Position numbers and translations under genes: made by a program. A model generated the notes under the pieces. The model worked only from the letters and a program-made list of their open reading frames with translations, was not told where the DNA came from and did not search any database. DNA of 32,000 nucleotides, from positions 270,001 to 302,000 of the forward strand of contig NZ_JBHSTI010000002.1 of NCBI RefSeq assembly GCF_042660085.1. The letters are read 5' to 3'. The DNA comes from Longivirga aurantiaca (lineage in GTDB: Bacteria > Actinomycetota > Actinomycetes > S36-B12 > CAIYMF01). This document shows, piece after piece, positions 2,290-4,850 of the stretch (its first letter is position 1; the number at the start of each line of letters is the position of its first letter).

Positions 2290-2588
2290 GCGTGACGGTC
2301 CGCTACTGGGCGGCCGCCAAGGCGGCGGCCGGGGTCGCCGACGAGCAGCTCGACAGCGGAGGCACCCTGGCCTCCCTCCTCGACGGCGTCCGTGCGGCTC
2401 ACGGCACCGAGCTCGCCACCGTCCTGGCACGCTGCTCGTACCTCGTCGACGAGGTGAGCCCGGGCAGGACGCCGCACGCCGAGGTGGTCGTGGCCGACGG
2501 CTCGGTCGTGGACGTGCTCCCGCCCTTCGCCGGCGGCAGTGGCGCGACGGAACAGACGGAGACCCCCGCGGCGTTGGTAGCCCCGTGA
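2286..2588 (+). CDS. MoaD/ThiS-family sulfur-carrier-like protein with a 16-residue extension after the Gly-Gly
   Basis: [73 protein letters not shown]. The GTG start overlaps the upstream stop (GTGA) and the stop overlaps the next start (GTGA). Confidence 0.75.
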
Positions 2589-3058
2589 CCGGTGTCTACG
2601 TGGTGCTCGGCGTGCTGGTGCTCGCCACGGCGTTCGGGCTCTACCGACGCCGTACCGACGGCACGATGCGCGAGGTCGAGATCCCTGCCGACACGCAGGA
2701 CTCGAAGAAGGTGCCAGGAGCTCCGATCGGCTCGGGCCACGCGCACCAGGGCGACCGCATGGACACCGCCGACCTCGGGGTCGAGCTCGGCGACCGCGCC
2801 ACGCTCGTGCAGTTCTCGAGCGCCTTCTGCGCCCCGTGCCGCACCACCCGCGTGATCCTCGACGAGGTCGCCGGCCAGGTCGAGGGGGTCACGCACGTGG
2901 AGATCGACGCCGAGGAGCACCTCGACCTCGTGCGCCGCATGGACGTGCGGCGCACCCCGACCGTGCTGGTGCTCGACGCCTCGGGGGCCGTCCGGGTGCG
3001 TGCCGCGGGCGCCCCGCGCAAGGCCGACGTCGTCGCGGCCCTGGGCACGTTCCTGTGA
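2585..3058 (+). CDS. Membrane-anchored thioredoxin-like protein (ThiX-like, CxxC = CAPC)
   Basis: N-terminal TM segment [17 protein letters not shown], followed by a thioredoxin fold: [49 protein letters not shown]. It occupies the position of Rv0816c thiX. Confidence 0.75.
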
Positions 3059-3073
3059 GCGGCGCTGGCACGC

Positions 3074-3100
3074 GGGTGTTGCGAACGATTCGCAACACCC
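3074..3100 (+). terminator. Stem-loop GGGTGTTGCGAA-cga-TTCGCAACACCC downstream of the thioredoxin-like gene
   Basis: Perfect 12-bp inverted repeat starting 16 nt after the stop at 3058; there is no U-tract. Confidence 0.45.
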
Positions 3101-3174
3101 CGACCGGTGGCGGAGCAGTCTCACGATCCGGCACCGGGTGTCCAACTCGTGGACCGGCACCTATCCTCGACCCC

Positions 3175-3252
3175 ATGCAGACGGTGGTTCTCACCAAGCG
3201 ACGCGCAGTGGACTTCTGCCGCGTCGGGTCCTGCATGTGTCGAGCCTCCTGA
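3175..3252 (+). CDS. Candidate leaderless Cys-rich leader peptide (25 aa: MQTVVLTKRRAVDFCRVGSCMCRAS)
   Basis: The ATG at 3175 lies 7 nt downstream of a TANNNT hexamer (TATCCT, 3162-3167) with no SD sequence. Three Cys codons fall in the last 11 codons. The sORF sits 80 nt upstream of the DUF4395 gene, and CATGCAG (3174-3180) is complementary to CTGCATG (3231-3237), which spans Cys20/Met21. Confidence 0.4.
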   Translation: MQTVVLTKRRAVDFCRVGSCMCRAS

Positions 3253-3331
3253 ACCGGTAGCCCGGGTGCCCATGGCACCCCCGCGGATCCGGTCGAACGC
3301 AGCCCTTCCGTGCCGCTTCGTAGGAGACACC

Positions 3332-3808
3332 GTGACCACGCTCGACTCCCGCCCCACCGCGACCGCCCGCCCGCGTCAGATCGACGCGCGTGGTCCCCGG
3401 TTCGCTGCCGCGATCACCGTCGTGGTGCTCGCCGCCACGCTCGTGACCATCGACTCCACGCTCTCGGTGGTCCTGCTGGCGGTCCAGGCGGTCGCGTTCG
3501 CGCTCGGCTCGCTCGTGGGCCTGCACGCGCAGCCGTACGGCTGGATCTTCCGCTCGCTCGTCCGCCCGCGGCTCGCGCCGCCCACGAAGTTCGAGGACGT
3601 CGCACCGCCGCGCTTCGCGCAGACCGTCGGTCTCGTCTTCGCCGTCGTCGGTCTCGCCGGTCTCCTCACCGGCGCGACCGTCGTCGCGTACGTCGCGGTG
3701 TCGTTCGCTCTCGCGGCCGCGTTCCTCAACGCCGCGTTCGACTTCTGCCTCGGGTGCGAGATGTACCTGCTCGGCAAGCGCGTGCTCGGCTCGCGCGCCG
3801 CAGCCTGA
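3332..3808 (+). CDS. DUF4395 domain membrane protein
   Basis: GTG at 3332 with AGGAGA at 3322-3327. IDARGPRFAAAITVVVL..PYGWIFRSLVRPRLAPP..EDVAPPRFAQTVGLVFAV..AAFLNAAFDFCLGCEMY is typical of DUF4395. Confidence 0.8.
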   Translation: MTTLDSRPTATARPRQIDARGPRFAAAITVVVLAATLVTIDSTLSVVLLAVQAVAFALGSLVGLHAQPYGWIFRSLVRPRLAPPTKFEDVAPPRFAQTVGLVFAVVGLAGLLTGATVVAYVAVSFALAAAFLNAAFDFCLGCEMYLLGKRVLGSRAAA

Positions 3809-3905
3809 CCCACCCGGTCCTCGCGGCGCCGGCCGCCGTCGTGCAGCTTCGCCGCGACCGGCGACGGCACGAACGTCCCTCCGCCCTCACCTCGAAGGAC
3901 TCCTC

Positions 3906-4154
3906 ATGGCTCCTCAGGCCGTCATCCAGGGCACGGTGTCGCAGGCCGGCCGGCCGGTCGGCGGCGCGTACGTGCGCCTGTCCGTCCCCGGTGGCCGGCT
4001 CGCGGCCGAGGTGCCCACGAGCAAGACCGGGACGTTCCGCTTCTTCGCCGCCCCGGGCAGCTGGACCCTGACGACCCTGGCGCCGGGCTCGACCGTCGAC
4101 CGCACGGTCGCCGTCGAGCAGGACCAGGTCTCCGAGGTCCACGTCGCGATCTGA
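3906..4154 (+). CDS. DUF1416 domain protein (SseC-like)
   Basis: 82 aa: IQGTVSQAGRPVGGAYVRL..GRLAAEVPTSKTGTFRFFAAPGSWTLTTL matches the DUF1416 pattern (M. tuberculosis SseC2, Rv0814c). Confidence 0.8.
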   Translation: MAPQAVIQGTVSQAGRPVGGAYVRLSVPGGRLAAEVPTSKTGTFRFFAAPGSWTLTTLAPGSTVDRTVAVEQDQVSEVHVAI

Positions 4155-4217
4155 CGCGACCCACCGTCCACACTCCCGACCCTCACCGCACCACCGAAAC
4201 CGACAGGAGATCCACCC

Positions 4218-4850
4218 ATGTCCATCCGCCTCGGCGACGTCGCCCCCGACTTCAGCGCCGACACCACCGCCGGCCCCATCAGCTTCCACGACTGGAAGGC
4301 CGGCAGCTGGGCCGTGCTGTTCAGCCACCCGGCCGACTTCACCCCCGTCTGCACCACCGAGCTCGGCCGCACCGCCTCGCTCAAGGGCGAGTTCGACAAG
4401 CGCAACGTCAAGGCCATCGCGGTGTCGGTGGACGGCGTCGAGAGCCACAACGCATGGGCCGGCGACATCAAGGACGTCAGCGGCAGCGAGCTCAACTTCC
4501 CGATCATCGGCGACGAGAGCCGTGAGGTCTCGCTGGCCTACGACATGATCCACCCGGGCGAGGGCGACACCTCCACCGTGCGCTCGGTGTTCATCATCGA
4601 CCCCAACAACAAGGTGCGCCTCACGCTCACCTACCCGAAGTCCGTCGGCCGCAACTTCGACGAGATCGTCCGCGTCATCGACGCCCTGCAGCTCACCGAC
4701 AAGGCGACCGTCTCGACGCCGGTCGACTGGACGCCGGGCTCGCGCGTCATCGTCGCGCCGACCATCTCGACCGAGGACGCCAGGGAGAAGTTCGGCGAGG
4801 TCGAGGAGGTCAAGCCGTACCTGCGCTGGACCCCGCAGCCGAACGTCTGA
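4218..4850 (+). CDS. 1-Cys peroxiredoxin (Prx6 subfamily)
   Basis: LGDVAPDFSADTT..WAVLFSHPADFTPVCTTELG..FPIIGD..VRSVFIIDPNNKVRL..YPKSVGRNFDEI.RVIDALQ; AGGAGA RBS upstream. Confidence 0.9.
   Translation: MSIRLGDVAPDFSADTTAGPISFHDWKAGSWAVLFSHPADFTPVCTTELGRTASLKGEFDKRNVKAIAVSVDGVESHNAWAGDIKDVSGSELNFPIIGDESREVSLAYDMIHPGEGDTSTVRSVFIIDPNNKVRLTLTYPKSVGRNFDEIVRVIDALQLTDKATVSTPVDWTPGSRVIVAPTISTEDAREKFGEVEEVKPYLRWTPQPNV

Follow-up and report, generated by a model that had tools for sequence, protein, structure and literature searches.

The window analysed here is a stretch of 32,000 nucleotides (nt) from Longivirga aurantiaca (contig NZ_JBHSTI010000002.1, positions 270,001 to 302,000), and all coordinates are those of this whole stretch, position 1 being its first letter. 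Its 273-bp intergenic gap at 3059-3331, which precedes a gene for a DUF4395 membrane protein, holds a short open reading frame (sORF) of 25 codons plus TGA on the forward strand (3175-3252, stop codon at 3250-3252) that encodes MQTVVLTKRRAVDFCRVGSCMCRAS. Judged by its sequence, this sORF is a real and conserved relative of the mycobacterial cysteine-responsive leader peptide Ms5788A. We consider it likely that it forms part of a leaderless, ribosome-mediated translational attenuator of the Ms5788A/Rv0815A family that controls the DUF4395 sulfur operon. The peptide is homologous, the promoter and ORF geometry is conserved and so are the predicted pairings of the leader RNA. This is a new example of a known, curated regulator and brings no new mechanism; modestly new are its wide distribution, the observation that polycysteine is not a conserved feature, an invariant rare UGU as putative sensor codon and a predicted helix sequestering the start codon. 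The initial annotation of this DNA, made from its letters, had proposed a cysteine-sensing attenuator at this place, a reading that gains support from the homology, from the genomic position shared with Ms5788A and Rv0815A and from a score above the cut-off of a curated leader-peptide model.

The leader ORF and its relatives

Ms5788A (VSTRLELSLTKRRAVDLCRVAGCCCCCCCC) is encoded upstream of MSMEG_5788 (Table S1 of Canestrari et al. 2020, bioRxiv 10.1101/834739; Mol Microbiol 114:93). Ms5788A and Rv0815A belong to a class of polycysteine leaderless sORFs defined by at least two consecutive Cys codons (bioRxiv 10.1101/834739). The annotation of M. tuberculosis now includes Rv0815A and three further sORFs of this kind, and ribosomes stall at their Cys codons when tRNA-Cys is cleaved (PMC13096801). 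The window peptide and Ms5788A have the core LTKRRAVD[L/F]CRV..C in common, LTKRRAVDFCRVGSC of the former aligning with LTKRRAVDLCRVAGC of the latter. NCBIfam model NF042934 (cis_reg_atten, "putative leader peptide") is matched with 31.1 bits, above its cut-off of 27, residues 4-22 covering profile positions 1-19 of 19. The equivalog NF042933 (leader_Ms5788A) gives 42.8 bits (E=3e-11) and its cut-off of 45 is not reached; Ms5788A itself and the leader of the related locus L040 each score 51.8 bits. The NCBI pipeline would probably name the product a putative leader peptide from its NF042934 score and would not name it an Ms5788A-family peptide, the NF042933 score being too low for that. Taken together, the sequence comparisons indicate a divergent member of the Ms5788A family, which most likely works in the same way. 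A six-frame scan with the hidden Markov models (HMMs) found no leader copy in the window besides the sORF at 3175-3252. Rfam gave no match to a cis-regulatory RNA at gathering thresholds in the whole window, and at E<=10 the region 2950-3450 returned only Twister-sister (E=1.6, 15.8 bits against a gathering score of 34).

The start of the sORF has the geometry of a leaderless transcript. As the initial annotation had described, a -10-like hexamer TATCCT of the TANNNT type (3162-3167, forward strand) lies 7 nt before the ATG at 3175, and inspection of the sequence finds no Shine-Dalgarno (SD) sequence upstream of this ATG. Among the 461 ATGs of the 32 kb, only the sORF start has a TANNNT hexamer 6-8 nt upstream. 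The hexamer is found 6-7 nt before the ATG or GTG in all 45 homologous leaders checked. Such a geometry predicts a leaderless transcript starting at A3175. The length of the ORF and of the gap that holds it were also as first described, and so were the thioredoxin-like, DUF4395, DUF1416 and peroxiredoxin genes around it, which Pfam identifies.

Three Cys residues stand at positions 15, 20 and 22 of the peptide, none adjacent to another (C-x4-C-M-C). Their number had been held to lie far above the usual Cys frequency; for this window it is ordinary. At 72% GC the out-of-frame Cys content is 2.5%, and 7 of the 61 window ATG sORFs of 20-35 codons (11%) have at least three Cys. Cys enrichment was consequently judged weak as evidence and set aside. 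The window taken alone thus offers a mixed picture, with exceptional start geometry and ordinary Cys content and folding energy, and for this reason the case rests on comparative data.

Relatives were gathered by a search with the window DUF4395 protein, which yielded 60 genome loci and 56 metagenome loci. A homologous leader precedes the DUF4395 gene in 46 of the genome loci and in 28 metagenome loci. The lineages that bear it are Nanopelagicales-like metagenome-assembled genomes (MAGs), Herbidospora, Amycolatopsis and Prauserella. The closest DUF4395 relatives are found in "Candidatus Nanopelagicales" MAGs (87% identity), and the metagenome contig L061 carries an identical leader. Residues L6, R9, R10, A11, V12, D13, R16 and C22 are invariant, and C15 is nearly so, being replaced by Gly in MFCCQRR variants. 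Leaders of 24-32 residues contain 2-4 Cys, and every member found keeps Cys22. Among 74 related leaders, 59 have no consecutive Cys, ten have CCC and five CC. Nearly all substitutions in the core codons 8-17 are synonymous and affect third positions left unpaired by the predicted hairpin, and the reading frame is kept; both the peptide frame and the RNA appear to be constrained. The initial annotation had looked to conservation and covariation in related genomes as informative: the former is extensive, with a Cys-bearing sORF upstream of DUF4395 in those 46 genome loci and Cys22 invariant, and the latter is thin, being confined to five pairs.

These data bear on two simple alternatives. An ORF arisen by chance in GC-rich intergenic DNA, its self-complementarity being fortuitous, would be in keeping with what the window alone displays, namely a Cys content reached by 11% of comparable sORFs and an ordinary folding energy (z=-0.83). 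Against it, the ORF, its frame, its start geometry and the position of its stop are conserved across at least four actinobacterial lineages, and a curated HMM is matched above threshold. Since ORF, frame, promoter geometry and helices are conserved in dozens of related loci, there is more here than chance; it is this conservation in the comparative data that rules out a chance origin, to which we give practically no weight. The sORF product might also be a functional small protein, for instance a thiol- or metal-binding one with its C-x4-C-x-C arrangement, which acts with the DUF4395 and DUF1416 proteins while any cis effect is incidental. The strong conservation of the peptide, which includes positions whose RNA is unpaired, would suit such a protein. 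The number and position of Cys nevertheless vary (CMC, CCC, C-x6-C, an N-terminal CC, eight Cys in M. smegmatis), unlike a fixed binding site, synonymous sites are frozen in paired columns, and a cis-acting role was demonstrated in the prototype. Cys attenuator peptides are in addition thought to be unstable (PMC13096801). We regard a functional small protein as very improbable.

The leader is not found everywhere, and several loci carry variants of it. An sORF with such geometry is not recognisable upstream of DUF4395 in L014-L016, L018-L024, L026, L027, L037 and L043, many of which come from Nanopelagicales or acI-type MAGs, so that the attenuator is not universal for the DUF4395 gene. A variant leader MFCCQRRDLTQRRVIDFGRITRSLC(R/H), with Cys-Cys at codons 3-4 and the mid Cys replaced by Gly, occurs in L025, L096, L099, L107 and L108 and goes unrecognised by the NCBIfam models. 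Leaders of the Amycolatopsis clade (L029-L058, e.g. 2806-2983 of L033) are longer (about 31 codons), start with GTG and have two Cys codons only (C-x6-C). L044, titled Streptomyces sp. MN03-5084-2B, has a leader nearly identical to the Amycolatopsis ones in a similar locus, and its assembly may be mislabelled or contaminated. The DUF4395 gene of Propionicimonas (L010) is preceded by a non-homologous sORF MSAHVYASLHMGARPSRMCCRR at 2774-2842, whose ATG follows TATCCT at a distance of 6 nt; a leaderless Cys-Cys leader may have arisen there independently at this same locus.

Predicted RNA architecture

The experiments on Ms5788A define what the RNA of such a leader does. Cysteine-responsive expression requires leaderless translation of Ms5788A and its Cys codons, as shown by start-codon and frameshift mutations, and recoding only the polycysteine tract abolished the response to cysteine (bioRxiv 10.1101/834739). 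The tract pairs with the SD region of Ms5788, compensatory mutations restoring control, and a ribosome on the Cys codons frees the SD otherwise paired to the 3' end of the sORF (bioRxiv 10.1101/834739). Control acts on translation and reaches the downstream genes by polarity; termination within the leader is excluded, since a reporter that follows the leader and has its own SD does not respond to cysteine (bioRxiv 10.1101/834739). The window RNA was compared with this prototype through the description given in the paper. Its structures derive from consensus and single-sequence folds, complemented by partition-function folds of 15 clade leaders.

The functionally important element of the window leader, and most plausibly the gate of expression, is in these folds a helix that we name P1. 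Its anti-SD strand (3239-3251, forward strand) is made of CUCCUG (3246-3251), which runs from the third base of codon 24 through the last sense codon into the UG of the stop codon, and of the extension GUCGAGC (3239-3245). The partner strand is the DUF4395 initiation region (3321-3346, forward strand), with the SD UAGGAG (3321-3326), the GTG start codon (3332-3334) and GCUCGAC (3340-3346). CUCCUG is predicted to pair with the SD, and GUCGAGC would extend the helix by pairing with GCUCGAC inside DUF4395 codons 3-5. Pairing of 3246-3250 with AGGAG at 3322-3326 is predicted at p=0.95-0.98, while the sixth pair G3251·U3321 appears in the minimum free energy structure only. In all 15 clade leaders, the partition-function folds pair the SD to the stop-codon region (p=0.87-1.0). 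Covariation links the second base of the stop codon to the one preceding AGGAG, UGA being matched by CAGGAG and UAA by UAGGAG (GC 22, AU 4, GU 2, other 2), and the window is a G·U intermediate at this pair.

The initial annotation had listed three other helices and supposed that ribosome stalling remodels them and thereby gates expression. The helices are real and conserved, but none of them would be the gate, and P1, between the sORF end and the SD, had been overlooked. The first, P0 (3175-3236, forward strand), pairs the 5' AUGCAG (3175-3180) with CUGCAU (3231-3236), and so the start codon with the Cys20 region; in the DNA, CATGCAG (3174-3180) is indeed the reverse complement of CTGCATG (3231-3237). 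The pairing is conserved, its GCAG:CUGC part forming standard pairs in 30 of 30 sequences, nearly invariant and with no covariation. The second, P0b (3198-3224, forward strand), is a hairpin of GCGACGCGCAG, a 7-nt loop and CUGCCGCGU formed by codons 8-17 (KRRAVDFCRV). It corresponds to the complementarity first noticed between GACGCGCAG (3200-3208) and CTGcCGCGTC (3216-3225), which has one bulged C and is conserved: the hairpin is 100% paired in 30 sequences and, being nearly invariant, provides little covariation information. The GCA of Ala11 (3205-3207) pairs in this hairpin with the UGC of Cys15. A small hairpin P0a is also predicted at 3183-3195 (forward strand) between the start codon and P0b.

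The third helix, P2, directly follows the stop codon (3253-3293, forward strand) and is closed by ACCGG...CCGGU; its core GGGUGCC-cau-GGCACCC (3264-3280) had been correctly located, and the hairpin is conserved, keeping its position in relatives while its apical sequence varies. A further small hairpin P3 (3294-3320, forward strand) has the core GCAC...GUGC in relatives, of which the window, with GCAG, has lost one pair; 91.6% of its cells are paired. For the whole proposed structure, 87.6% of the cells are standard pairs in 30 distinct leaders, against 30-51% when the partners are slid. Changes on both sides affect five alignment pairs only, four of them in P2 and one in P1, and, with most paired columns constant, the statistics of covariation are weak. 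Folding of a longer region gives z=-3.36, and that fold includes a 12-bp palindrome (3075-3101) lying outside the leader.

The prominence of P2 raises the question of control at the level of transcription, P2 acting as a U-less intrinsic terminator or Rho acting on the untranslated leader, with SD masking secondary. That would account for a stable, position-conserved and covarying hairpin right after the stop codon, and the prototype paper does invoke polarity for the downstream genes. The features of the leader RNA speak against it. P2 is followed by CGAACGCAG and not by a U-tract, it is nested inside the SD-sequestering helix in the predicted fold, and a scan of 2900-4300 found neither a terminator-like site nor a sigma-70 consensus promoter. 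The missing sigma-70 match is as expected for actinobacterial promoters, and the absence of a terminator argues against a classical one. The cysteine-insensitive independent-SD reporter of the prototype, which excluded termination in the leader, points in the same direction. Transcription-level control thus appears improbable to us, and translational gating by P1 is retained as the preferred mechanism.

The output stage differs within the family: for the Amycolatopsis clade the folds predict that an intergenic CCUCU element, and not the end of the sORF, is the anti-SD of DUF4395. This clade lends independent support to P0 through an analogous helix built from unrelated sequence, GUGACCGGGCUG with CAGCCUGUGUCGC, which is 94.8% paired against 23-54% in slid controls and has one compensatory change from G-C to A-U.

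Sensor codons and proposed mechanism

By analogy with the M. smegmatis experiments, the operon would respond to cysteine through codons of the leader, with polar effects downstream. Transcription would start at A3175, the mRNA beginning with the sORF AUG and being translated without an SD. In the free RNA, the sORF end (3246-3251) would mask the DUF4395 SD (3321-3326), pairing being extended by the flanking helix 3239-3245/3340-3346, and the hairpins P2 and P3 between the strands would hold P1 together. The masked SD would lead to poor translation of DUF4395, and expression of the DUF1416 and peroxiredoxin genes would probably be lowered too, by polarity. When charged tRNA-Cys is scarce, the ribosome would dwell at Cys20 and, above all, at Cys22 with its invariant rare UGU codon, the ribosomal footprint covering the anti-SD strand, so that the SD is freed and the operon translated. 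With plentiful cysteine, termination would be quick and the SD-sequestering helix would re-form. As P0 pairs the 5' AUG with the Cys20 region, we infer that a finished, free leader probably limits new leaderless initiation and that sensing is largely co-transcriptional.

A crude footprint model, in which the ribosome keeps unpaired a block that extends 15 nt upstream and 11 nt downstream of the first base in the A-site codon, was applied to this scheme. Modelled accessibility of the SD is 0.02 in the free RNA, and an A site at Cys15 leaves it at this value; with the A site at Cys20, at Cys22 or later it reaches about 0.3, but at codon 21 only 0.05. The codon of Cys15 (TGC, 3217-3219), in the 3' arm of P0b, lies too far upstream to affect P1 in this model. 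That of Cys20 (TGC, 3232-3234) is clade-specific and lies in the 3' strand of P0. The codon of Cys22 (TGT, 3238-3240) is family-invariant and stands three sense codons before the stop; with the A site there, the modelled footprint covers 3246-3249 of the anti-SD 3246-3251. All three codons, on the forward strand, had been put forward as sensors. On this model Cys20 and Cys22 are plausible sensor codons, Cys22 most so, and Cys15 is not. The direction of the modelled effect fits the published mechanism.

Codon choice singles out the distal Cys further. It is TGT in 56 of 56 unique leaders, whereas Cys15 is TGC in 50 of 51, other leader Cys codons are mostly TGC and the genes of the window use TGC and TGT in a ratio of 10:1. 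Ala11 is likewise the rare GCA in 47 of 60 leaders, a codon that accounts for 12 of the 208 Ala codons in window genes. Slow wobble decoding could explain the constancy of TGT, and so could pairing, which would be of U3240 with A3345 here and, in Amycolatopsis, with A4 at the 5' end. Non-mycobacterial leaders typically have 2-3 dispersed Cys, an invariant UGU, the RRAVD.CR core and a helix between the start codon and the sensor region, and these traits lead to a further reading. The eight-Cys tract of the prototype would then be a derived mycobacterial elaboration, and elsewhere a single wobble-decoded UGU would be the sensor, read a single time during transcription, ahead of sequestration of the 5' AUG, and the conserved nascent peptide or hairpin might help by slowing the ribosome. 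We hold this to be unlikely, with some chance of being right.

Several observations weigh against attenuation by codon sensing through P1. The peptide falls 2.2 bits under the equivalog cut-off of NF042933. It has no consecutive Cys codons, whereas the published class is defined by at least two in a row, and stalling may be weaker as a consequence. In the equilibrium model, SD accessibility does not exceed about 0.3. Covariation is thin, with 11 to 282 of 500 shuffles reaching the observed values, depending on the measure, and the leader folds no better than shuffled sequences (z=-0.83). The locus is known here from its sequence and from predicted folds. Finally, codon sensing alone does not account for the strong conservation of RRAVD.CRV.

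This last point would be met if the conserved RRAVD.CRV core and its hairpin, and not hungry Cys codons, were the sensor. Some sulfur or redox signal would in that case make the nascent peptide or the hairpin in the RNA arrest or slow the ribosome, and the Cys codons would play a secondary part. Such a sensor would explain the extreme conservation of the core, in which R9, R10, A11, V12, D13, C15 and R16, together with C22, are invariant across orders, V12 and D13 being so even though the P0b loop that contains their codons is unpaired. The 59 of 74 leaders without consecutive Cys, many with two Cys codons only, are compatible with it, and the NF042934 profile that spans the core (residues 4-22) is a domain-type model, not an equivalog. 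In the prototype, on the other hand, recoding the polycysteine tract alone was enough to abolish the cysteine response; Cys22 is present in every member found, with a steady content of 2-4 Cys in 24-32 residues, and the literature searched holds no arrest-peptide evidence for the Ms5788A family. A sensor residing in the core seems rather improbable, and we favour dwelling of the ribosome at the Cys codons, relieving P1, as the explanation of the locus.

Flanking genes, upstream motifs and known systems

All genes around the leader are on the same strand as the sORF. Upstream, 2328-3058 holds a ThiS/MoaD-like sulfur-carrier gene whose product ends in GG and a gene for a membrane-anchored thioredoxin-like protein with a CAPC motif, which fits a sulfur-transfer neighbourhood. 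The first regulated gene would be that of the DUF4395 membrane protein (3332-3808, 158 aa; Pfam PF14340, E=1.2e-43), likely the counterpart of Ms5788; its GTG start at 3332-3334 is backed by the N-terminus MTTLDSR conserved in relatives. It is followed by a DUF1416 (SseC-like) gene (3906-4154; Pfam PF07210, E=1.6e-26, also found by tblastn with the DUF1416 protein of L008), the likely counterpart of Ms5790. The leader is thus followed on its strand by the sulfur/cysteine-operon context of the Ms5788A class. A 1-Cys peroxiredoxin gene (4218-4850; Pfam AhpC-TSA and 1-cysPrx_C) comes 63 nt after the DUF1416 gene and is probably the last gene of the operon; the same adjacency recurs in L001 and L017.

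In M. smegmatis the order is a separately transcribed thiX, the leader, Ms5788 (159 aa, hydrophobic), cysA2 (rhodanese) and Ms5790 (bioRxiv 10.1101/834739). No rhodanese (cysA2-like) gene was found between DUF4395 and DUF1416 of the window, which are separated by a 98-nt gap (3808-3906), nor in the whole 32 kb, and it is also absent from the close relative L001. L017 seems to be without DUF1416 as well. The relatives L008 and Amycolatopsis L033 have the order leader-DUF4395-rhodanese-DUF1416, as in Ms5788-cysA2-sseC2.

Two motifs precede the promoter. A perfect palindrome with 12-bp arms, GGGTGTTGCGAAcgaTTCGCAACACCC (3075-3101), lies 17 nt after the stop codon of the thioredoxin-like gene and is the only copy in the window. 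Relatives, low-GC ones included, keep both the sequence of its core TGCGAA-N3-4-TCGCA and its spacing from the -10 hexamer (about -96 to -80 relative to the predicted transcription start). It might serve as an operator site or as a terminator that lacks a U-tract. The second motif, GTCTCAcgATccGGCA (3118-3133, about -57 to -42 from the predicted start), has the consensus GTCTCA-N2-AT-N2-GGAC and is kept in the clade and in Herbidospora; in many relatives it is the right half of a GAGAC-N4-GTCTC palindrome. Its position suggests a putative transcription-factor site. Neither motif has further copies in the window beyond chance.

The locus extends the leader of the mycobacterial "Cys ribulon", Ms5788A, to distant Actinobacteria, namely Nanopelagicales-like freshwater and soil lineages, Streptosporangiales and Pseudonocardiales. 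What the family is seen to conserve is not the polycysteine run but leaderless promoter geometry, the hairpin-forming RRAVD.CR core, a single invariant Cys codon (UGU) and downstream SD sequestration. Annotators thereby have grounds to call these sORFs. With three dispersed, non-adjacent Cys codons, the window leader is a natural minimal variant on which to study the smallest number of codons that such a ribosome-based sensor of an amino acid requires.

The closest known system is Ms5788A/Rv0815A, with which the window leader shares a homologous peptide core and leaderless promoter geometry. Like Ms5788A, it sits between a thioredoxin-like (thiX) gene and a gene for a hydrophobic protein of about 158 aa, followed by a DUF1416 gene, and the 3' end of its sORF is predicted to pair with the downstream SD. 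The differences are several. Ms5788A has nine Cys, eight of them consecutive at the C-terminus, while the window peptide has three dispersed ones and three codons (RAS) after the last. The anti-SD consists of the Cys codons in Ms5788A and, in the window, of the last sense codon and the stop, next to the Cys codons. The window sORF starts with AUG instead of GUG and has a shorter N-terminus, and its operon lacks cysA2 and has a 1-Cys peroxiredoxin gene after the DUF1416 gene. Ms5788A was characterised by experiment, the window locus by sequence and prediction. The ermCL and cat leaders resemble it in that a ribosome stalled in a short upstream ORF opens a helix masking the SD and translation initiation is controlled. 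There, however, the stall is caused by an antibiotic and the nascent peptide and not by a shortage of charged tRNA, the leaders have their own SD and are not leaderless, and their sequences are unrelated. With the trpL and hisL attenuators, the window leader has in common a short ORF enriched in codons of the regulated amino acid, in which dwell time reads the supply of charged tRNA. Those systems switch between terminator and antiterminator to control transcription, whereas the window leader has no U-tract terminator and its target would be the SD of the DUF4395 gene.

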